From the UHGV virus genome UHGV-0168748: a stretch of DNA of 44,209 nucleotides; one strand, written 5' to 3'. Positions 6,449 through 41,786 of the stretch are shown one piece after another (position 1 is the stretch's first letter; each line of letters opens with the position of its first letter). The translations under genes were made by a program, and so were the position numbers. A model generated the notes under the pieces. The model saw nothing but the letters and a program-made list of their open reading frames with translations, did no database searches and was not told the DNA's origin. This DNA is from a virus.

Positions 6449-7108
6449 TTACATACGGGTAACAGAATCCCAGTAATCGCGAAGATATTCTTGGTCTTCA
6501 GGATCTTTTGGAGTAGCCGGAATGTGACCATCGAATTCAAAAGGAATAACTTCCAGTAGGTCTTTGATTTCGTAGCGCTCAACTTCCAGCTCAACTTTCA
6601 CCCAACCACCCACAGAAGTACCATCACGTACCTCAGTAAGTAAGCCAGTGAAATCGTCTTTGGTATCAATAACAGGATGCCCTGTTGTGAGTACAAAAAC
6701 ATCGATATCCCAATGTTTTGCACCGCGTTCAGCGAGTTCTCCGGCTTCTAAATGCACGCGCTTAACGAGATGAGCTAAATAGCCATCACGATAGAAGGTC
6801 AGTGCAGTGTTTAAACCGATGTCGGAGTTCTCTTCAATTTTAGCGTCAAGATGTTGACGTTTCAGCGTAAGTTGTGCCGTACCGTCTTCTTTGATACGAA
6901 TACGACGTCTTCCACCTTCAATAGGCATCAGAACGTCCATGAACATCTTAGCAGACTGCGCGTGCAACCAATCCCAACCTGCTTGGGTAGGTTTAACCCA
7001 GACGCAATATTCCTTTTCCACTTCGCGTTTAATGGATTCGCCTGCAACGCGAATAACCTCTTCTTCCTGCGCCTTTTCCAATTGCGCAAGGGTATCGAAT
7101 AATCCCAT
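6449..7108 (-). CDS. hypothetical protein
   Basis: 219-aa track ORF; weak, unconfirmed resemblance to a triphosphate-tunnel (CYTH-like) N-terminus. Confidence 0.5.
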   Translation of the reverse strand: MGLFDTLAQLEKAQEEEVIRVAGESIKREVEKEYCVWVKPTQAGWDWLHAQSAKMFMDVLMPIEGGRRRIRIKEDGTAQLTLKRQHLDAKIEENSDIGLNTALTFYRDGYLAHLVKRVHLEAGELAERGAKHWDIDVFVLTTGHPVIDTKDDFTGLLTEVRDGTSVGGWVKVELEVERYEIKDLLEVIPFEFDGHIPATPKDPEDQEYLRDYWDSVTRM

Positions 7109-32440: not shown

Positions 32441-33049
32441 TTATTTGGTATACGGTTGATATCCCATTGAAATCCAGTCATCAATGTTCTTTGAGTTTTC
32501 TACCCAAACCCGACCTGCTTCAGAAGCCATCATCTCCATTGTTAGTGTGCAAATCAGATTGGTTACTGCCGCACATTTCCCTGGCGTTACGCCATCCAGA
32601 TAAACCGGATAGAGATACGGGGATTTAATGCTTTGGTACGGATAAGAATAATGGCTACCGACCATCCAACCTTCTTCTACCGGACACAAGTTAAAGGTAC
32701 GGGTTTCAGGAACTTCGCCTTCAGAGATCCAGTTAACAACGTCTGCTTTAATACGACCGTTGTCCACGTAATAGAACACAACACGTTGCGGAATACTGAC
32801 AGTACCCGCTGGGTCGAGAGCTTCCATTGCTTTGAACGGCGTTGTCAGTAAAGTCGTACTGTTCTCGAGCGCGTAAACCAGTTTGTCATACGCCACCGGT
32901 GTTTTACGCTTAAAGTATTCCCGTAAACGCGGGTAAGCTAAGAACCCTTCAACTTCTTCTTCCATCAGATCGATGAATAACGGGGTGTGTGGATGCTGCT
33001 CTGCGTTCAACATGGCTTCAAGAAAACGAACTAGTGTGATTTCGTTCAT
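32441..33049 (-). CDS. hypothetical protein
   Basis: 202-aa track ORF; no metallophosphatase motifs, so not an Mre11/SbcD partner. Confidence 0.55.
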   Translation of the reverse strand: MNEITLVRFLEAMLNAEQHPHTPLFIDLMEEEVEGFLAYPRLREYFKRKTPVAYDKLVYALENSTTLLTTPFKAMEALDPAGTVSIPQRVVFYYVDNGRIKADVVNWISEGEVPETRTFNLCPVEEGWMVGSHYSYPYQSIKSPYLYPVYLDGVTPGKCAAVTNLICTLTMEMMASEAGRVWVENSKNIDDWISMGYQPYTK

Positions 33050-33061
33050 CTGGCATTTCCT

Positions 33062-33097
33062 TTTAAATCAAAAAAGAAACCCCGAACGTGGTCGGGG
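33062..33097 (-). terminator. rho-independent terminator
   Basis: CCCCGA-ACGTGG-TCGGGG, U-run on minus strand. Confidence 0.6.
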
Positions 33098-33106
33098 CCG
33101 GGCTAA

Positions 33107-33583
33107 TTAGAGCCCTAAGTGCGTGAGTGATAAAATAGGCTGGGATTCACCTTTAATCGTTGCGTAGGAGCGGTACATTTCCGCGTTACTTGAAAAGACT
33201 TCGTTAGCAACGATACATTCACCCGTCTCTAAAGAAAGGAGATAAATGTAGTCGCTCCATACACTTTGTACCAATACCCATTCGAGTGCAGTATCGCTTT
33301 CTCGCGTTGTCCGTAAGTAATGGAAATAAGGACGAATTGCGTCAACGGCTGCATTAAATCGGCGGTGATAAATTCGGGTTAAATCGAACGTCCAAATTGT
33401 TTCCAGGTCGACAGGATGTAATGTACGTACTGTGTCGATGATTGTTGACTGGTCGCCTATACGAGCAGCTTCTGCAATACGTAATAGTTTCCAAGCCACT
33501 GTCAGGTTGTGGCGAATCTGTTCAGGTTTGGCGGACAGGTCATGATGAAATTGTGCTGCTTGGTAGACGTTAGACAGTTGCAT
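33107..33583 (-). CDS. hypothetical protein
   Basis: 158-aa track ORF. Confidence 0.55.
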   Translation of the reverse strand: MQLSNVYQAAQFHHDLSAKPEQIRHNLTVAWKLLRIAEAARIGDQSTIIDTVRTLHPVDLETIWTFDLTRIYHRRFNAAVDAIRPYFHYLRTTRESDTALEWVLVQSVWSDYIYLLSLETGECIVANEVFSSNAEMYRSYATIKGESQPILSLTHLGL

Positions 33584-33660
33584 GATAATTCTCCTTTAGG
33601 TATAACAAGTCGTAAAAAGGACCCCGGACGAATCGGAACGTACCGGGGCCAAGACTACAC

Positions 33661-34050
33661 TCAGTAATCTAATTCGATAGCGCCTGCCATCTCACCGCGT
33701 TCTTCGATAACGATTAAGTAACGGTCGCGAGATTTGCTTTTAGCAAGCGATAAGACAACAGTAGGGTCGCACGTTTTCGTAGTGATAGGAAGAACCTCTT
33801 TTGCGACAGAATCAAGTAGGAAATAGTAACCGGCTGGGCACATCGCGCCCCCGTCGGCTTTCACCAGAATGTAGCGCCCATCTGCGCCGACTTCTTGACA
33901 GGTTGTTTCTCCATTCTCACAGACTTCAAAACTGGGTGGATTGTACTGATAATCGTCGTTGTTGTTTGCTGTCAGCAGTAAATCGTTAACCTGGGTAGAA
34001 GCAGTTACGCTCAGAGAGAAGAAGAATGCTAAAGCGCAAATGAAACGCAT
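33661..34050 (-). CDS. small secreted protein (signal peptide)
   Basis: MRFICALAFFFSLSVTAST; several cysteines in mature part. Confidence 0.55.
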   Translation of the reverse strand: MRFICALAFFFSLSVTASTQVNDLLLTANNNDDYQYNPPSFEVCENGETTCQEVGADGRYILVKADGGAMCPAGYYFLLDSVAKEVLPITTKTCDPTVVLSLAKSKSRDRYLIVIEERGEMAGAIELDY

Positions 34051-34060
34051 GAGTTACTCC

Positions 34061-34471
34061 TTAAATTTTAAGTTTATCCATAGCCACAACGATAGATTTT
34101 TCAGAGGTGTCTAATATCCCTACCCACGGCACACCATCTACGACTTGGAAGAACGGTTTGTTATTTCCAGAGCACAGACGCTTGTCGTTGTATTCGAGAC
34201 GTTGGGCTTTCCACGTTTCGAGGTTAAGTACCGACATAGGGCTGTCGTAGCACCAGGCACCGCCTTGCTCAACAACGAATACGTATCTGTTACCTTTGTA
34301 TTTAAACAGATTCTTCGTCTGGCAGTACAAACCATCGATTTCTGTACAGTAGAAATCATCGGTACTGTTGACGTATTTGATACCATCCGGTAATTTTATT
34401 GTTTTTGCTGTCACGTTAGCAGTGAAGAGAACAGCGATCGCAACGAGAAGCGTGTTGATGATATTTTTCAT
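34061..34471 (-). CDS. small secreted protein (signal peptide)
   Basis: MKNIINTLLVAIAVLFTANVTA. Confidence 0.55.
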   Translation of the reverse strand: MKNIINTLLVAIAVLFTANVTAKTIKLPDGIKYVNSTDDFYCTEIDGLYCQTKNLFKYKGNRYVFVVEQGGAWCYDSPMSVLNLETWKAQRLEYNDKRLCSGNNKPFFQVVDGVPWVGILDTSEKSIVVAMDKLKI

Positions 34472-34482
34472 GATAAACGTCC

Positions 34483-34968
34483 TTAGTATTTAGATTGTTC
34501 CGCGTATTTCTTAACCAGATAAGCGAATTCAGCAACACCGATATCACCGAACCAAATCAGGTAACCGGGGTCGATGTTGTAGTAATAACCGACGAGTTCG
34601 TTGGTTTGTGGGTTGTATAACGTTACGATATATTCCCAGCCACAAGCGTTAGCTTTACAGCCACCACTTTCAATCCAGATTTTGTTATTAATGTTTACCG
34701 GGTACATCGCACCGCCGGGGCCATCCATGTAACCTTTAGCACCGAACATACCATTCAATCCTACCGGGTCCAGTGTTTTATCAACAACCGCTTTAAATGA
34801 CTTATCGGTATCGTACACGTCGTTGATGTTTGGACACGCGTTAGGTTGTCCGTCCCATGCGTTGGTGTCGCATGTAAGCGCATCTTTCACTGATGCTGCA
34901 TCAACAGTTGGTGTAACACCGATAAACATGAAAGCCAGAAAGAACATCAGTGTGTGTAAACGTTTCAT
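34483..34968 (-). CDS. small secreted protein, possibly Ivy-like
   Basis: Signal peptide MKRLHTLMFFLAFMFIGVTPTVDA; GGCKANACGW loop resembles the CKPHDCG loop of Ivy lysozyme inhibitors. Confidence 0.5.
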   Translation of the reverse strand: MKRLHTLMFFLAFMFIGVTPTVDAASVKDALTCDTNAWDGQPNACPNINDVYDTDKSFKAVVDKTLDPVGLNGMFGAKGYMDGPGGAMYPVNINNKIWIESGGCKANACGWEYIVTLYNPQTNELVGYYYNIDPGYLIWFGDIGVAEFAYLVKKYAEQSKY

Positions 34969-34986
34969 CGTAACTACTCCTTTAGA

Positions 34987-35382
34987 TTATTCAGCAGGGC
35001 GATTTAAAGTAACACGACCGATTAATTCGGCATTATGAAAGAAATCTACAGCGGTATAATTACCAACTGATAACGGGTGAATACTAACCGACATGACTTT
35101 TGGTTGTTCGCAAGCAATATCAGTTAGACGTTGATAGACACGTGCGCCGTTATCGGCAATGATTAGTCCGGTGCATGTACTGTCACGCATCAGGCGGTAC
35201 ACCTCTAGTTTACCGAAGCTCCGCATTAGTGTTGGTGTTTCATCAGGATTAATAATTGGGGAATCTGGTGCTGGGTCGTAGTAGCGGATATCCGATTCAC
35301 CGAAAGCGTACGTACCGGTAATACCGATAGCGCAGAAAATAATGATAGTATAAAGTATAGTTTTAATATTCATTTCACGCAC
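34987..35382 (-). CDS. small secreted protein (signal peptide)
   Basis: MNIKTILYTIIIFCAIGITGTYA. Confidence 0.5.
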   Translation of the reverse strand: MREMNIKTILYTIIIFCAIGITGTYAFGESDIRYYDPAPDSPIINPDETPTLMRSFGKLEVYRLMRDSTCTGLIIADNGARVYQRLTDIACEQPKVMSVSIHPLSVGNYTAVDFFHNAELIGRVTLNRPAE

Positions 35383-35433
35383 TCCTTAAATAGAACGGGG
35401 ACCACGAAGTCCCCCCCCCTTTTTTTCCTGTAA

Positions 35434-35904
35434 TTATTGTTCGTATTCGGTGTTCCAGCAAGATTCGAGGAAGTTACCGTCCATCACTTTCTTAACGTTT
35501 TTGGCTGATGGGTTAAAGGTAGCAACCTTTTTCTGGTCGAGGTATAAGTCAAACTCAGTTGCTGTAGAGATTGCTTTTACAAAACTAACCCAAGTATTGT
35601 CGGTATTACGTGTGCCGTCAGGAACTACACCCCAGAACTCTTCACCATCGATAACGAAACTAATGTCGTTATCTTCCGAGTTGGCCACCACATTACCATC
35701 TTTAGAGATAAAGATCTTGTGTGGTAAAATGTTGTTTTCATCTGGATTACCGGTACAGCTAATGGTAATACCCCATCCACCGTTATCGATACCATACTCG
35801 GTTTCACCCATTGCAAAGCCACTACCCCACATGTTCGGAATGGCCTGTGCAGCAGTGGCGCTTACAGTTAAAACGATAGCTAAGAAGATGTTAGACAGTT
35901 TCAT
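35434..35904 (-). CDS. small secreted protein, paralogue of 35942-36397
   Basis: Signal peptide; conserved blocks TISCTGN, SFVIDGEEF, TWVSFVKAI shared with the neighbour. Confidence 0.55.
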   Translation of the reverse strand: MKLSNIFLAIVLTVSATAAQAIPNMWGSGFAMGETEYGIDNGGWGITISCTGNPDENNILPHKIFISKDGNVVANSEDNDISFVIDGEEFWGVVPDGTRNTDNTWVSFVKAISTATEFDLYLDQKKVATFNPSAKNVKKVMDGNFLESCWNTEYEQ

Positions 35905-35941
35905 GGTTATATTCCTTTTAGTTTAAAAATTAAGTTATTTA

Positions 35942-36397
35942 TCAAGGACGGCTATGTCCACAGTTCTTAAAGAAAGTTTCGGGCAGACGCTCACCATCTA
36001 CAATAAAGTTAGCGGCTTCGTTACCGTTGATAGCCACACCGAAGCTTTTTGCATTAGCGATAGCATTAGCGAAGGCAACCCAAGCTTTTTCTGCTTTGTC
36101 GCTGCCGTCAATAGTGGGAATGATATAGTTTTTGCCGTTTACGACAATACTCATTTCGTTGTCTTCGGCATTAGTTGAACCGACCGGTTCACCGTAATAC
36201 CAAACCATGCGACCGTAAAACTTACGATTAGCCGTTGCGGTATCGCAGTTGATAGACAAGCTGTTCCCATTTTCGTCTTCGATTTCGTAAACAGCATTTC
36301 CCGGACTTTGAAGTCCTTCCCAGCTTCCGATTGCGGCGTAAGCGTTATTGAGACCGAAAGTTAAAAGGGTTACTAAGAATGCGATAAAAGTTTTCAT
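35942..36397 (-). CDS. small secreted protein, paralogue of 35434-35904
   Basis: Signal peptide; conserved blocks SINCDTA, SIVVNGKNY, AWVAFANAI. Confidence 0.55.
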   Translation of the reverse strand: MKTFIAFLVTLLTFGLNNAYAAIGSWEGLQSPGNAVYEIEDENGNSLSINCDTATANRKFYGRMVWYYGEPVGSTNAEDNEMSIVVNGKNYIIPTIDGSDKAEKAWVAFANAIANAKSFGVAINGNEAANFIVDGERLPETFFKNCGHSRP

Positions 36398-36446
36398 TGA
36401 AATACTCCTTAAAGGTTAACAGGTTAAAAGAGTTAATCGTAACTCT

Positions 36447-36470
36447 CACCTAAGTAATATATATCTGAAA
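36447..36470. promoter_or_regulatory. conserved 24-bp intergenic element, copy 1
   Basis: CACCTAAGTAATATATATCTGAAA; 23/24 identical to 40771-40794; flanked by hairpin AGAGTTA-ATCG-TAACTCT. Confidence 0.45.
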
Positions 36471-36489
36471 TTATTTCTAATCGTACTGA

Positions 36490-36520
36490 ACAAAAAAGAA
36501 AGTGGGAGCAATGCTCCCAC
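36490..36520 (-). terminator. rho-independent terminator
   Basis: GTGGGAG-CAATG-CTCCCAC, U-run on minus strand. Confidence 0.6.
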
Positions 36521-36525
36521 TGCGT

Positions 36526-37107
36526 TCAAACATCGAACCGATACAAACGAGAACCTACCAGAAACTCGGTGTTCAGTTCTATCCACTCGAGTAAGTCTCC
36601 GAGCGGTAAACGCTTCGGGTTTTCTAACTCGATAGTGGCAACTGGATAGGAGTTAACCAATTCCGTAATGGACTCGATACCCTCCTGCGTTCCGTCGTCG
36701 TCTAACGTAATACTGAAGGGCATATCCGTACGTTCAGCACTCGGATTATACAGGTTGATTTTACTGGCTTGTACAAACGCCGAGTAGTCGTCCCGAATGA
36801 TCCTTACGTCAGGCAGTAACGATACCCACAAAAGTCCACCCGCTGGTGCTTTACGTCGTGCGTATTGCACAAACGGCGATGCAGGAATCTTATCCATAGC
36901 GCAGCAGATACAACGTAGCGTAGGGCCACGAGGATCGGTGTGTTCTACAGCAAAGATACCTATCGGGTCCAGACTACTTTTCTGTTTTACCAGAAAGGCC
37001 AGTACCGTGTCCGCCTTTTCGGGTAAGGAAAGCTCAATTCCTTCTAGCTCCCCATTGACGAGGTTTTCCAACCATACGTCTTTTCGCATTTCTATTAATC
37101 GGTACAC
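36526..37107 (-). CDS. hypothetical protein
   Basis: 193-aa track ORF. Confidence 0.55.
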   Translation of the reverse strand: MYRLIEMRKDVWLENLVNGELEGIELSLPEKADTVLAFLVKQKSSLDPIGIFAVEHTDPRGPTLRCICCAMDKIPASPFVQYARRKAPAGGLLWVSLLPDVRIIRDDYSAFVQASKINLYNPSAERTDMPFSITLDDDGTQEGIESITELVNSYPVATIELENPKRLPLGDLLEWIELNTEFLVGSRLYRFDV

Positions 37108-37119
37108 GGTACCACCTCA

Positions 37120-37893
37120 CTATTGATTAAGTTTTACATCTGCAATAAACAGCAACTGTTTACCATGTTGCTGCACTTCTTTCCAACCTAGCTTCATAGC
37201 AGCGTCAACAACATCTATCATGCTGTAACGAGAGATCAACGAGGCTGATTTTGTTCCTGACATTAAGTAGAGCGGCTCATTAGGGCAACGGTCACGGGCG
37301 TCAGGGAGTTCTTGAATGATTGATGATCCTTCAGGTACGTTAACAACACTAATCACGGTAAATGGCCTTTTGTGCGTTAGATAAATACGAAAACCGACAT
37401 GTTTAGACTCATGAAAGATTTTCTTCACGACCGCGTCTTTTAATGTCGTCTGAACTTCGACCCCAGGCAATATCATGGATTTACGGGAAACGAAACAACG
37501 ACTATTTTCGACTGTGGAGAAATAATTACGTATCGGTAAGCTGTTATTGTTATCGCGCAGTCTTTTGCTTAAGAGATCATAATCCATCTCTTTAACTTCT
37601 TCTAACCACAGATGTGCACGTTCAACGTAATACAGGCCAACCGTGTGGTAACTTAATACTTTGCCTGTACTTAGTTGCCAGAGCTTAACGCTGAGTGAGT
37701 CGGGTTTATATCGGCGATATTCCCCACGGGTATGATTGACACGTTGGTAAAGACCTACGTCTTCTGTTGGTGCGGATTCGACGGACCGCAATTGGAGTGT
37801 TCGATTATATTTATCGTCCAGCAACAACGAGGCCAGCGAGCCATTAATCACGTAGTGTTCTGATTCAAAAAGTGCATCTAAATGGATTTTCAT
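37120..37893 (-). CDS. member A of paralogous family with conserved C-terminal tail
   Basis: Ends ...AAMKLGWKEVQQHGKQLLFIADVKLNQ; start moved to ATG 37893 with AAGGA RBS. Confidence 0.55.
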   Translation of the reverse strand: MKIHLDALFESEHYVINGSLASLLLDDKYNRTLQLRSVESAPTEDVGLYQRVNHTRGEYRRYKPDSLSVKLWQLSTGKVLSYHTVGLYYVERAHLWLEEVKEMDYDLLSKRLRDNNNSLPIRNYFSTVENSRCFVSRKSMILPGVEVQTTLKDAVVKKIFHESKHVGFRIYLTHKRPFTVISVVNVPEGSSIIQELPDARDRCPNEPLYLMSGTKSASLISRYSMIDVVDAAMKLGWKEVQQHGKQLLFIADVKLNQ

Positions 37894-37960
37894 TTCTATT
37901 TCCTTCTTAACAAAAGCCGCGACTAAAGCGCGGCAGTTAGAGAAAGTGTATTTTCGTTTA

Positions 37961-39088
37961 TTAAAGGTCAGCAACAAACAACAGCTGACTGCCGTACGAT
38001 TCGACAGATTTCCAACCGTAATCTTTACCGATCGTCGTTAAATGACCGGTATTTAACTTTTTGTCAATCGACCGCAATTGCATCATTAGCGTATTGGATT
38101 CTGCCGCATCAAGTAACAACGCAGGTTCTTTTTCAGTGCGATCATCCGCTTTCGGGAAGAAACTGTAATATTGACTTTTGGGTAGATCGATTGACAACGT
38201 ATAATTTTTCTTTGTAAGGAATAACGCCATCCCTTCGAAATTGCAATCGAAACGATATTCCCAACCCGCTTCTGCTAAAACGTCTTTTAGCATTTCCATG
38301 ACTTTAAGCTGGTTAACGCTAGGCAGTCGGTAAATTGCAAGACCACTTGGGAAAATGCGTATACCGTCGACGACACTATCGGTGGTTTCGTCAATAAGTT
38401 CAGGATAGCGTTGTGAGAAAATGTGATCGCTCTTGCTTTTCTCTTCGACGTCACGAATGAATTGTGCTAATTCTTCTTTCAATGTACTTGTCATTTCTTT
38501 CTCCACTACTTTACGTTCAATACACACTGCGTAATACATTACGTCGTTAAATTCGGTTACGAGCCTTAGTCCTGTGTCGATGAACTCGTACGGAAACCCA
38601 CCGTTAGGGGTGCGGCGTGTAGGTACGTTTTGGGATATTTCTTGAATTACGTGAATCTTCTCAATTTCAAATCCACAGAGTTCTTCCAGAAAAGTCATAT
38701 CCTGCTGGTCGAGTAATTTCACACCCTCGTAAGGCAGCCGCCTGATTTTATACTCCAGTAATGAGAATTTCTCCGATGGGTAAACACGATACATTAAACG
38801 TTGATTTGATTTTAACTCACGGACGTAAAGTTTGTCGTAGGGTAACGACTCATTTGCGTATAGAGTGAATTGAAAATCCTCAATGCGTTCGTCGAAAACA
38901 CAAATATCCACGGGTGCACAGATTGGTTCTGGCAAAGCGTTAACGGTGCAACCAAAAACGCGCCCGAACAAATCATTTTGCGTAGCACACGGGATATTGA
39001 GTAGTATTTTCGGTACACCTTTCTTGTAATCTTCGAAAAGTAATTCAAGATAGAGTCTATGCGACGGTGAGTTATTGTAGATATGCAT
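37961..39088 (-). CDS. member B of paralogous family with conserved C-terminal tail
   Basis: Ends ...TIGKDYGWKSVESYGSQLLFVADL. Confidence 0.6.
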   Translation of the reverse strand: MHIYNNSPSHRLYLELLFEDYKKGVPKILLNIPCATQNDLFGRVFGCTVNALPEPICAPVDICVFDERIEDFQFTLYANESLPYDKLYVRELKSNQRLMYRVYPSEKFSLLEYKIRRLPYEGVKLLDQQDMTFLEELCGFEIEKIHVIQEISQNVPTRRTPNGGFPYEFIDTGLRLVTEFNDVMYYAVCIERKVVEKEMTSTLKEELAQFIRDVEEKSKSDHIFSQRYPELIDETTDSVVDGIRIFPSGLAIYRLPSVNQLKVMEMLKDVLAEAGWEYRFDCNFEGMALFLTKKNYTLSIDLPKSQYYSFFPKADDRTEKEPALLLDAAESNTLMMQLRSIDKKLNTGHLTTIGKDYGWKSVESYGSQLLFVADL

Positions 39089-39099
39089 GATATCATCCC

Positions 39100-39654
39100 T
39101 TAAACATTATAAGCTAAGAACAACAATTGTTTACCTACTTTACGCACGGTATACCAGCCATGCGCTTTAGCGACAGCGATGAGGGTTTCCCAGTCGTCAG
39201 CATTACAATGTTCTTTCCGAAGTTGTTCAAACAACGCTTCAGCTTCGTCTTGATTTAACAGCTTACCCGGATTGTCTGGCGTGCAATCAGTAGGGCTTGG
39301 AAAGAAGCTATACAGACGCGCTAAGAGAAAATCAACCGAATACTTAACACCTTCCTTATAAACCAACACAGATGTTTTCCCTTCGTGGAAGAAACTGCCT
39401 GTTTTCCAAGCGGTATCTCCCAGTAAGCTTCGAAGGTAAGACGTAAACCCACTTCTGAAAGAGATATCCGTGTTACGTGGAATTCTGCGGAACATCGGTG
39501 TTTCTCCCACCGCTTGTACGGTTACACCCACTACCATCACGTCCGGTGAGATAATGGTATTAGTCAGTACGGTATAAGGACAAGTAAAGTAGTGTTCACC
39601 AACACCCTTTTCAAGAGATTGAACGATTTCATTTTTCAATTTAGCGTGATACAT
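39100..39654 (-). CDS. member C of paralogous family with conserved C-terminal tail
   Basis: Ends ...AVAKAHGWYTVRKVGKQLLFLAYNV. Confidence 0.6.
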   Translation of the reverse strand: MYHAKLKNEIVQSLEKGVGEHYFTCPYTVLTNTIISPDVMVVGVTVQAVGETPMFRRIPRNTDISFRSGFTSYLRSLLGDTAWKTGSFFHEGKTSVLVYKEGVKYSVDFLLARLYSFFPSPTDCTPDNPGKLLNQDEAEALFEQLRKEHCNADDWETLIAVAKAHGWYTVRKVGKQLLFLAYNV

Positions 39655-39681
39655 GATTATTCTCCTTTTCGGTTTTTTTAC

Positions 39682-40434
39682 TTACGCGTGTTTTAACAAT
39701 AACAAGCGGTTATTGGTAATTTCAGCAGCGCCCCAGCCTCTAACAGTAGCGATGCTAAGTATATCGACTTCATCACGGTATTTCAACATCGGATCGTTGG
39801 GATTGATTTCGATCACGTGAGTATTTCTGGAAATCGTTTCTACTTCTGGGATTTCTTTTACTATATCCGAAGCAATTAACTCAAGAACGTACAGCTCCTC
39901 GAAGCATTTAAAGTAGATATGGACGCCGTATAACTTATCGTTATCGTCCCTTAACGGGTAGAGATTAAAACCAGGACCCAGTAACGTTAGTTCCGCATTG
40001 TAAGGTACTTCAAATTCACGATGAATTAATGCAATTCCGTGGCGGAATAAAGGGAAGTGGGCAAATACAGACATTAATGCCCACTGTTCTGTTATAATGG
40101 TCGGGTCATGGCTAAGCGGTCCAATGTTAGCCAGATTTTCGATAGCGTAGCGTACTGAATTAAAATCGCTTTCGGTAATGATACTGTAAATAAGCATCAC
40201 ACCAGTTTCGCTGTTAAGAATACTGAATACGCTATTAGCATAAGCGGTAATCCGATATTTATCCTCTGGTTCGTCAGTAGGAACGTTTTCAGGCTTAACC
40301 GTTTTGATTTCGACTAATTTAGCAGGGTATTTTGAACCTACTAAATCTTCAACGATAGGAGAGGCGATCTCTAAATAGGTCTTAGCAAAGAGTTCATCTA
40401 AGTATTGGTTAACAAAAACTTCTGCTGTCAGCAT
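39682..40434 (-). CDS. member D of paralogous family with conserved C-terminal tail
   Basis: Ends ...IATVRGWGAAEITNNRLLLLKHA. Confidence 0.55.
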   Translation of the reverse strand: MLTAEVFVNQYLDELFAKTYLEIASPIVEDLVGSKYPAKLVEIKTVKPENVPTDEPEDKYRITAYANSVFSILNSETGVMLIYSIITESDFNSVRYAIENLANIGPLSHDPTIITEQWALMSVFAHFPLFRHGIALIHREFEVPYNAELTLLGPGFNLYPLRDDNDKLYGVHIYFKCFEELYVLELIASDIVKEIPEVETISRNTHVIEINPNDPMLKYRDEVDILSIATVRGWGAAEITNNRLLLLKHA

Positions 40435-40493
40435 GGATTATTCTCCTAAAAAGGAATAAGGAAGTCACTACGTTCCTCTGGGAAGAGTATGTC

Positions 40494-40555
40494 GGTATAC
40501 TACGTATACCTCCGCTATTTATATCCGTATACATAATGCCCCCTACCCCCTACCG
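40494..40555. promoter_or_regulatory. cluster of GTATAC half-sites and CCCCCTAC direct repeat
   Basis: GGTATAC-TAC-GTATACC, CCGTATAC and CCCCCTACCCCCTACC within a 385-bp intergenic region. Confidence 0.35.
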
Positions 40556-40610
40556 GTATCCCGAGTAGCAGAATAAAGGGACAATCTGTAAATTTTAAGT
40601 AATACTATGA

Positions 40611-40688
40611 TTACCGAGGAATAGCTGGGTTGTAGCGTTTGAACTGTTCGATGACTTCGTCCAATCCGCCTTTCTTCTCAGTAGACAT
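40611..40688 (-). CDS. possible 25-aa small ORF, not in ORF track
   Basis: Hand-translated MSTEKKGGLDEVIEQFKRYNPAIPR with AGGAAACAGACC RBS. Confidence 0.25.
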   Translation of the reverse strand: MSTEKKGGLDEVIEQFKRYNPAIPR

Positions 40689-40770
40689 TGGTCTGTTTCC
40701 TAATAACGTGGTAACTCCGTTTCGAAAGAAACGTGTCCGTAGGGACTGAACTCGCACTTCAGTCCCTATT

Positions 40771-40794
40771 CACCTAAGTAAAATATATCTGAAA
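40771..40794. promoter_or_regulatory. conserved 24-bp intergenic element, copy 2
   Basis: CACCTAAGTAAAATATATCTGAAA; adjacent perfect 10-bp hairpin AGGGACTGAA-CTCGCAC-TTCAGTCCCT. Confidence 0.45.
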
Positions 40795-40820
40795 CCAATT
40801 CCGATCTAAGGAACGTCCCG

Positions 40821-41786
40821 ATGGAGAAATCCAGTGTTGATTTTTTCTCAATTGGTATCGTCGCGGAAGACAAACCCCGTGGTACAGATCGGGTAAAAGT
40901 GATACCAATTGAAACCAACTTTGCTAACCCTACTGTGGTGCAATCTGTTTCTTCAGCAACTGAAAAGACGCATGAAACGTCTGGTGCAACAGATAACCTA
41001 ACCATTAAGACGGGTAACACGATAACAGCAAAGTGGTGGAAGTTTAACTCCAACCGAATTAATTCCCCTGACGTTAAACGAGAAGACTACGTTATCTTGT
41101 TACGTTTGGGGAAAACCGATATTTATTTTTGGATTGATTTGAATTTCGCTAACGTTAAGCGATTAGAAGATGCGGTTTATGCGTGGTCGGCTGACCCCGA
41201 AAACCAAATGGCGGATGACCTGTCCAATGCGTATGTGTTGAATGTCTCGACGATTGACAAACATATCACGCTAAGAACATGTATGGTGAATGGCGAGAAA
41301 GCGGCGTGGTTATTCCAGTTTGACAACGCAAACGGATCGTGGCAATGCGTTGACCATAAAGGGAACAAGTATTACATTAACTCGGTCGAAGATGATCTCG
41401 GGTTTGAGAATGCGATGCTATCAAAAGTGAACATCAACAAAGAAGATGCGTTCATTTATTCAAAGCGTTCTATTAACCTGGAAACAAAAACGATTAATGA
41501 GAAATGCGAAGTTCGCAATACAGAAGCATCGAAATCCGTTACCTTTAAAACACAAACCTGGTTAACGGAAGCGGGGAGTTCGACCACCTTTAAAACGCCG
41601 AACTTTAAACAAGAAGGGAATGAAGCACAATTCACCGGTAATCTTGAAGTGGCTAAAAACTTCAAGTACGGCGGTACTGGGGAAGGTGTGGGTATCTTTA
41701 CGGTTAAAGATGCGGTTATTGCGGGCATTACTTTCAGCGTACACATCCACGACGGTGTACACGGTCCTACTTCGGGTCCACGGTAA
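40821..41786 (+). CDS. hypothetical protein with His-rich C-terminal tip
   Basis: 321 aa; ends FSVHIHDGVHGPTSGPR; tail fibre or spike tip is speculation. Confidence 0.55.
   Translation: MEKSSVDFFSIGIVAEDKPRGTDRVKVIPIETNFANPTVVQSVSSATEKTHETSGATDNLTIKTGNTITAKWWKFNSNRINSPDVKREDYVILLRLGKTDIYFWIDLNFANVKRLEDAVYAWSADPENQMADDLSNAYVLNVSTIDKHITLRTCMVNGEKAAWLFQFDNANGSWQCVDHKGNKYYINSVEDDLGFENAMLSKVNINKEDAFIYSKRSINLETKTINEKCEVRNTEASKSVTFKTQTWLTEAGSSTTFKTPNFKQEGNEAQFTGNLEVAKNFKYGGTGEGVGIFTVKDAVIAGITFSVHIHDGVHGPTSGPR

Follow-up and report, generated by a model that had tools for sequence, protein, structure and literature searches.

In the 44,209-nucleotide (nt) stretch of virus genome UHGV-0168748 analysed here (the window), two adjacent minus-strand genes, B (35942-36397, 151 amino acids (aa)) and A (35434-35904, 156 aa), open an array of small genes whose products are predicted to be exported. 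Both are assigned to the YfjT family. An earlier sequence-only reading had taken them for an old tandem duplication that diversified under host-interaction selection. We favour a different explanation, to which we assign a probability of roughly 60%. The tandem pair represents two already-divergent YfjT cassettes, one placed behind the other in an exchangeable slot where a probable early operon begins and drawn from a pool that is common to enterobacterial islands, and it did not arise by duplication in situ. B is probably the resident gene, and A probably occupies an accessory slot that is filled, emptied or refilled by recombination.

Judged by its genes, the phage that carries A and B is an SPN3US/phiEaH2-like jumbo phage of Salmonella and E. 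coli (Chimalliviridae-like). The window originates from a jumbo myovirus, with a conserved virion protein that is 78-83% identical to its counterparts from Erwinia phage phiEaH2 and Salmonella phage SPN3US. Hallmark phage genes are also encoded (UvsX-like, RNase H, thymidylate synthase, SbcC-like, baseplate). Related contigs have a size of 222-225 kb and are from Salmonella and E. coli samples.

The A/B Locus in Related Phages

The array was mapped in 16 loci of SPN3US/phiEaH2-like jumbo phages, the window included. All 16 have B, which is followed by A in six loci (the window, L002-L005 and L212) and by another allele, A', in two others (L008 and L211). A' is of the P0006 type, has 152 aa and is about 40-43% identical to A. 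The other eight loci (L007, L012-L015, L018, L213 and L214) have B only, and the next gene starts about 30 nt after it. The sequence-only reading had pointed to copy number in related phages as informative. As these counts show, the two copies are not inherited together.

DNA comparisons delimit the variable segment. When the window is compared with L008, both flanks have mostly 80-100% identity, and a drop to about 50% is confined to the span from about 35850 to about 35400. This span extends from just 3' of the region coding for the A signal peptide to just 5' of the ribosome-binding site of the next gene. The loci L211 and L212 code for an identical B protein and share 99-100% DNA identity over 1.4 kb upstream, with about 50% identity only across the slot. 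L211 carries A' and L212 carries A, the latter being 100% identical to A from the window. At the right-hand side, the slot ends at a junction, TTTAAGGAGTGCGTGAAATGAA (35366-35390, minus strand), which comprises the ribosome-binding site of the next gene (g131) together with its start and is the likely recombination boundary. The junction trails B in the B-only phages; in the other phages it comes after A or A', and in E. coli after the island cassettes.

Lambdoid and T-even phages have moron or accessory-gene hot spots, at which conserved boundaries delimit the exchange of cassettes. As in such hot spots, identity at slot A falls from about 100% to about 50% between conserved junctions, and presence/absence as well as allele replacement is seen in near-identical genomes. 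Unlike in moron hot spots, one boundary is intragenic, where the signal-peptide coding region ends, and chromosomal islands share the cassette pool as well.

One B-only locus, L012, is a mosaic around its positions 6453-6488. Identity to the window is 84-96% for the genes right of the slot and only 74-79% for B and the genes on its left. The identity step is at the B/g131 junction; thus, the recombination boundary coincides with the cassette slot.

Content also varies further downstream. In five loci (L003, L005, L008, L211 and L212), the mature part of g161 is swapped for an unrelated protein of about 150 aa, and only the signal peptide is shared. The drop in DNA identity begins directly after the signal-peptide coding region. 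The gene g136 is missing from L003 and L005.

Two of the related jumbo phages were deposited under bacterial names. L018 (NZ_CP173450.1, 221,873 bp) is a circular "plasmid" of E. coli strain 98232, and L003 (AALRCZ010000008.1, 223,413 bp) is a contig of a Salmonella enterica assembly. These deposits suggest a carrier state, pseudolysogeny or contamination of the isolates.

Counterparts in Enterobacterial Islands

A is 75% (aa) and 76% (nt) identical to P0002 of E. coli CP4-57-like islands, and the flanks are homologous. The gene order in these islands is integrase, dynamin-like GTPase, RdcB/YjcZ, patatin, YfjT, DUF905, DUF932, anti-restriction, RadC, DUF987 and CbeA/CbtA. Two segments of the window align with the E. 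coli locus L001. The first (35904-35369 versus L001 8040-8567, 76% nt identity) spans A, a hairpin and the junction. The second (35382-34922 versus L001 9214-9673, 70% nt identity) spans g131 and the start of the following gene. The hairpin is GC-rich (GGGGAC-TTCGTG-GTCCCC, 35397-35414, minus strand) and is located in the spacer between A and g131. It moves with the A cassette and is also kept 3' of the E. coli island copy of A. Immediately 5' of the hairpin, the coding strand has a homopolymer run, A7 followed by G9 (35410-35427). This run is far shorter in the E. coli copy; it could be slippage-prone or a sequencing artefact.

The pair is preceded by a predicted phiKZ-type early-promoter motif (36446-36479, minus strand), which is spelled AAATAA-TTTCAGATATATATTAC-TTAGGTGA. 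It has the core TTTCAGATATATATTAC at 36454-36470, an upstream A/T tract and a downstream TTAGGTGA, and is positioned 57 nt 5' of the B start codon. It matches L001 7971-7993 at 22 of 23 positions. The island counterpart of A' is P0020 (70% aa and 73% nt identity); the same promoter and leader precede P0020, and a remnant of the junction comes after it. A CP4-44-type island of O157:H7 contains homologues of g161 (60% aa) and g136 (63% aa) in the same order, just after the motif. Of 5426 complete E. coli genomes, 2460 have matches to parts of the array.

Three layouts can be distinguished. Islands have the promoter, A or A', and the junction. B-only phages have the promoter, B and the junction. 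The clade of the window has the promoter, B, A or A', and the junction. Among 69 bacterial loci, no tandem YfjT pair within 5 kb was found. E. coli Nissle 1917 (L006, NZ_CP007799.1 249676-268182) contains the patatin-to-CbtA segment, including the YfjT cassette, twice in tandem and about 8.9 kb apart. The g131 homologue of the islands (L001 9214-9590; also L006 1323-1693 and 10214-10584) is a frameshifted, unannotated remnant. It sits between a 209-aa open reading frame (ORF) with a signal-peptide-like N-terminus and a 150-aa ORF, which shares 57% identity with the alternative g161 allele from L003. We had taken the motif 5' of A in E. coli to prove a transfer from phage to island. This argument was dropped, the motif being a general feature of the islands.

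Homology of A and B and Their Protein Family

The sequence-only reading held up as far as the genes and their homology are concerned. Both ORFs are present on the minus strand, and its four motif pairs (SINCDTA/TISCTGN, SIVVNGKNY/SFVIDGEEF, AWVAFANAI/TWVSFVKAI and NCGH/SCWN) are found in the translations. The two cysteines that it described as conserved are C50 and C149 (numbering of A). Both are invariant in a 13-sequence alignment; in a family alignment of 55 sequences, C149 is invariant and C50 is at least 90% conserved. That A and B are strongly diverged homologues was confirmed by BLASTP (26% identity over 131 aa, E=9e-12). Without the 21-aa signal peptides, the best BLASTP segment has 32% identity over 56 aa (E=2e-10), and the mature parts, aligned globally, are 23% identical. 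Their Smith-Waterman score is 108, versus 31 +/- 5.9 in shuffled sequences (z=13; 0 of 2000 reached the score). The similarity is thus far above that of shuffles, and low complexity does not explain the match because the sequence entropy is about 4.0 bits.

As judged from profile matches, A and B are members of the YfjT/YkfB family (PF27224; phrog_3429), with about 135 mature residues, a Sec-type signal peptide and one conserved Cys pair. The predicted signal peptide of B is MKTFIAFLVTLLTFGLNNAYA (36335-36397) and that of A is MKLSNIFLAIVLTVSATAAQA (35842-35904), followed by the mature domain of A at 35437-35841. Both proteins match phrog_3429 (A: E=2.3e-12; B: E=6.9e-07). The membership in PF27224 ("YfjT") is based on precomputed matches of near-identical relatives rather than on a direct scan, these being 94-100% identical to A and 97% identical to B. 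Both proteins show the features of the family, which are the N-terminal signal peptide, the Cys pair, W26, W105 and F108 (numbering of A). In a search of 1.84 billion representatives, a profile based on A, B and relatives retrieved 186 clusters at E<=0.001; thus, the family is small. The name assigned by PGAP to the E. coli homologue is "YfjT/YkfB family phage-associated protein".

Bacterial family members are found in Enterobacterales, Aeromonas and a few relatives, and are 36-45% identical to A. They include the K-12-type yfjT and ykfB loci, with copies (L041, L042, L049 and L050) that are 38-39% identical to A. The gene yfjT is still among the uncharacterised genes of the E. coli y-ome (PMC11551758). 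Like K-12 YfjT (from CP4-57) and YkfB (from CP4-6), A and B belong to the same profile family and share size, signal peptide, Cys pair and the conserved W/F positions. Unlike these, the genes from the window belong to a lytic jumbo phage, are two in tandem and are preceded by a phage early-promoter motif. B additionally differs from the K-12-type proteins in being an outlier without a close bacterial relative.

The AlphaFold (AF2) model of A has a beta-sheet packed on helices, with a predicted local distance difference test (pLDDT) of 88 and a predicted template modelling (pTM) score of 0.81. A search with this model found no significant solved structure, and BFVD returned only other uncharacterised phage members. 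Neither A nor B matches NCBIfam, and a tblastn search of both against 50,697 phage records gave nothing at E<=1e-3. A profile search of PDB sequences returned 2mqb_A ("probable beta-lactamase"), but this is marginal (whole-sequence E=8e-4, best domain 0.059) and we do not trust it. Elsewhere in the family, two polypeptides (P0025, 298 aa, and P0072, 236 aa) have two YfjT domains, which indicates domain duplication or fusion. Several other members of about 290-370 aa fuse a single YfjT domain to other sequence.

Phylogeny, Selection and Alternative Explanations

In neighbour-joining trees, bootstrap support is 97% for the grouping of A with E. coli P0002 and 100% for the clade of B. Monophyly of A, A' and B obtains 6%. 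By pairwise distance, 86 family members are nearer to A than B is, and B is a long-branch outlier.

The ratio of nonsynonymous to synonymous substitution rates (dN/dS; NG86, pairwise) between orthologues is 0.08-0.17 for B, 0.06-0.09 for A and 0.00-0.21 for neighbouring genes. These values are gene-wide, and A versus B is saturated. Because the orthologue values are low and like those of the neighbours, there is no gene-wide sign of positive selection. The orthologues of A and of B are under purifying selection, and diversity is generated through cassette replacement. The proposal of diversification under host-interaction selection was not supported, given orthologue values of 0.06-0.17. Of the proposed old duplication with subsequent diversification, one part stands: A and B are real, diverged paralogues. 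Points against a duplication in situ are the absence of A from 8 of the 16 loci, the 6% bootstrap for monophyly and the exchange of slot A independently of B.

Such a duplication would have been an ancient tandem event in an ancestral jumbo phage, with strong asymmetric divergence, later loss of A in the B-only lineage and export to islands. We regard it as unlikely. It would account for the two genes being adjacent, co-oriented and 37 nt apart, and local duplication does happen in the family, as seen from the two-domain proteins P0025 and P0072. The full-data tree even places P0006 and P0020 as sister to B, but with a bootstrap of 30%, and the islands carry A and A' behind the promoter without B. 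The stacking might also have been selected for a joint function, with A and B working as a pair (a heterodimer or two steps of one process). The genes appear to be co-transcribed, with no terminator-like site between them, and five close relatives retain the pair at 97-99% identity; the two YfjT domains in single polypeptides would fit as well. This is quite improbable, however, with B being alone in eight phage loci and A-type genes being alone in all 69 bacterial loci. In addition, a single B protein occurs together with A in one phage and with the distant A' in another, which counts against a co-evolved interface. That A and B resemble each other by chance or composition, and that the ORFs are not real genes, has a negligible probability. 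Apart from the low identity (23-26%), no support for it was found; it conflicts with the BLASTP and shuffling results, the assignment of both proteins to the same PHROG and Pfam family, the purifying selection on the orthologues, the 186 clusters retrieved and the pLDDT of 88.

Several points weigh against two cassettes stacked in an exchangeable slot, or against parts of this reading. A gain of A in one clade and its loss in the other are equally parsimonious, and the mosaic boundary of L012 is exactly at B/g131. By distance, the nearest non-orthologues of B are slot-A alleles (P0006 and P0020, with A itself also among the closest), which is what an old duplication giving rise to B and the slot-A clade would predict. 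Deep nodes of the family tree are poorly supported, so that the non-monophyly of A and B is weak and not decisive. The synonymous divergence (dS) between A and its E. coli copy is saturated (2.2), and transfer between phage and island may have run in either direction. The signal peptides were recognised by visual inspection, from K/R, a hydrophobic core and a subsequent AQA or AYA. From the motif only, we infer that B and A are early genes transcribed by the virion RNA polymerase. No array protein has a match in PADLOC, and A and B match no Pfam or NCBIfam family of known function.

The Early-Promoter Motif in Phages and Islands

The motif has five matches in the window (0.25 expected), all on the minus strand and 5' of minus-strand genes. 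Within 33000-37200, DNA matches to SPN3US, phiEaH2 and Proteus phage 7 are confined to the motif-bearing intergenic stretch. In SPN3US, the matching stretch is also intergenic and 5' of a co-oriented gene. A small 5'-leader hairpin, GAGAGTTA-CGAT-TAACTCTT (36428-36447, minus strand), as read from the DNA, follows immediately 3' of the motif. Comparable hairpins also trail the motif in related phages and in bacterial islands.

Early promoters of phiKZ-like phages, which are used by the virion RNA polymerase (vRNAP), have been published for phiKZ (TATATTAC) and, with an extended consensus, for OBP, N1M2 and 201phi2-1 (PMC7058600 Table 2; PMC7598289). As with these promoters, the motif 5' of B fits the published consensus and is repeated upstream of operons in one orientation. 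Unlike the published promoters, the same motif also occurs in bacterial chromosomal islands. In the literature searched, no description of the motif in chromosomal islands was found. For a scan of viral contigs, single matches are expected by chance, given the size of the database; among the matches listed, only multiple ones in contigs of 220-250 kb are meaningful.

In bacteria, the degenerate pattern TTTCARAYNKATATYAY is found once per locus in 39 of 74 YfjT loci, 39 times on the plus strand and never on the minus strand, so that its orientation is always that of the genes, and it never occurred in 20 shuffles. The island consensus is TCCAAATAA-TTTCAGACAGATATTAT-CTCAGTGAA. Compared position by position with the N1M2/OBP consensus, it agrees at 34 of 35 positions, and the agreement extends to the A/T tract upstream and the GTG downstream. 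The motif is usually located 1.4-3.2 kb 5' of yfjT. In L009 and L030, it is found just 5' of an operon-opening gene for a YfjP-like GTPase. Its positions are 4756-4772 in L009, 2523-2539 in L030, 6747-6763 in L017 and 7977-7993 in L001, and there are 35 further loci. Loci with the motif come from Citrobacter, Enterobacter, Klebsiella, Kluyvera, Hafnia, Yersinia, Serratia, Providencia, E. coli and others. In its E. coli form, the motif-containing intergenic region is found in 2585 of 5426 complete genomes, where it is unannotated.

The island motif may be read by the vRNAP of a jumbo phage or by the host polymerase, or it may be a relic of shared ancestry. A good -10-like TATTAT inside the island motif is a point for the host polymerase. 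Early transcription by the vRNAP reportedly takes place within the early phage infection (EPI) vesicle (PMC13282480); thus, access of the vRNAP to the chromosome may be limited.

It is tempting to speculate that the Enterobacterales islands of the CP4-57, CP4-44 and CP4-6 types, with a pool of secreted cassettes (YfjT and others) and an early-promoter-like sequence in common with the SPN3US-like jumbo phages, are jumbo-phage-responsive elements (defence islands or satellites). We consider this doubtful. If true, the RNA polymerase of an infecting phage would switch on the island operon, provided that the promoter works in the chromosome. Besides the secreted cassettes, the induced operon would comprise the GTPase, a regulator, DUF932, an anti-restriction gene, RadC and the toxin-antitoxin pair CbtA/CbeA. 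The YfjT cassettes would then be envelope effectors that are used by phage and islands alike. Should the full phiKZ-type promoter motif be functional in islands, it would offer a chromosomal element a new means of sensing or exploiting infection by a jumbo phage.

A second perfect-class motif is located at 40778-40794 (minus strand), 344 nt 5' of the next long gene, and a conserved hairpin follows it. Between this motif and the gene (40440-40794), there are only ORFs of 48 aa and 41 aa and no Rfam or tRNA match.

Proposed Model and Possible Function

In the model that we propose, a phiKZ-type early promoter would open the operon, with B and A being its first two genes. Slot A, between B and the junction (the ribosome-binding site and start of the next gene), would be filled, emptied or refilled by recombination. 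Breakpoints would be at the end of the signal-peptide coding region (about 35850) and at the junction (about 35400). The cassettes would be drawn from a pool that is common to CP4-57/CP4-44-like integrative islands, where they are located behind what looks like the same promoter and leader.

The A and B proteins may be exported to the periplasm early in infection and act there at the cell envelope, for example in superinfection exclusion. We make this assignment tentatively. An envelope role is suggested by the signal peptides, the Cys pair, the position behind an early promoter, the five accompanying proteins with signal-peptide-like N-termini and the turnover of alleles. The likeliest roles would be the exclusion of other phages or the masking or modification of an envelope component, with different cassettes having different specificities.

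Superinfection-exclusion factors that are periplasmic proteins or lipoproteins are known from lytic phages, among them Sp and Imm from T4 and Llp from T5. If the proposed model applies, A and B would resemble these in being small signal-peptide proteins that act early, at the envelope, in a virulent phage. They differ in that no similarity in sequence or structure was found in Pfam, NCBIfam, function-bearing PHROGs, PADLOC or the structure search.

The routine view of a diverged tandem duplicate would thus be replaced by an exchangeable slot with mapped breakpoints, the alleles of which move between a virulent jumbo phage and chromosomal islands. The uncharacterised YfjT/YkfB family, part of the y-ome, gains a concrete and testable setting, with putative early periplasmic proteins of a Chimalliviridae-like phage.

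Among the other proteins of the array, g161 has a weak match to the lysozyme inhibitor Ivy (NF007443, E=0.005, 16.7 bits versus a cut-off of 180) and a C-K-A-N-A-C loop at residues ~104-109. A phmmer comparison with Ivy in PDB gave E=0.8, and a profile of five g161 homologues does not recover Ivy. The single-sequence structure model of g161 (pLDDT 38) is unusable.

Other Features of the Array and Its Surroundings

On the minus strand, the order of features is the terminator (36521-36501), the motif core (36470-36454), B, a 37-nt spacer, A, the GC-rich hairpin (35414-35397) and four small genes. The terminator-like hairpin with T-run (36501-36521, minus strand) has a 9-bp stem with 6 GC pairs, followed by TTCTTTTTTG, and closes the upstream gene 36526-37107. 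No credible Rfam match was obtained for 33000-37200 or 40380-40860, and the window contains no tRNAs.

The array of secreted-protein genes described in the sequence-only reading was borne out in the form of genes with signal-peptide-like N-termini. Each of the four minus-strand genes after A has such an N-terminus and a strong ribosome-binding site. The first, g131 (34987-35382), matches phrog_9424, and its true start is likely the ATG at 35373. It is followed by g161 (34483-34968), which has four cysteines and, with its swapped mature part, represents a second swappable slot. The last two are g136 (34061-34471, phrog_8968) and g129 (33661-34050, phrog_5248), the latter being a weak paralogue of the former. 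Both match phrog_8968 and align with 30% identity over 74 aa (E=1e-4), so that they may be a second diverged paralogue pair.

Upstream of the array, at 37120-40434 on the minus strand, there are four consecutive genes (285, 375, 184 and 250 aa) with a common C-terminal motif, approximately GW..V...GKQLLF[IL]A. One of these, g285, matches its own neighbour at 27-35% identity, and the four genes look like another paralogue array.

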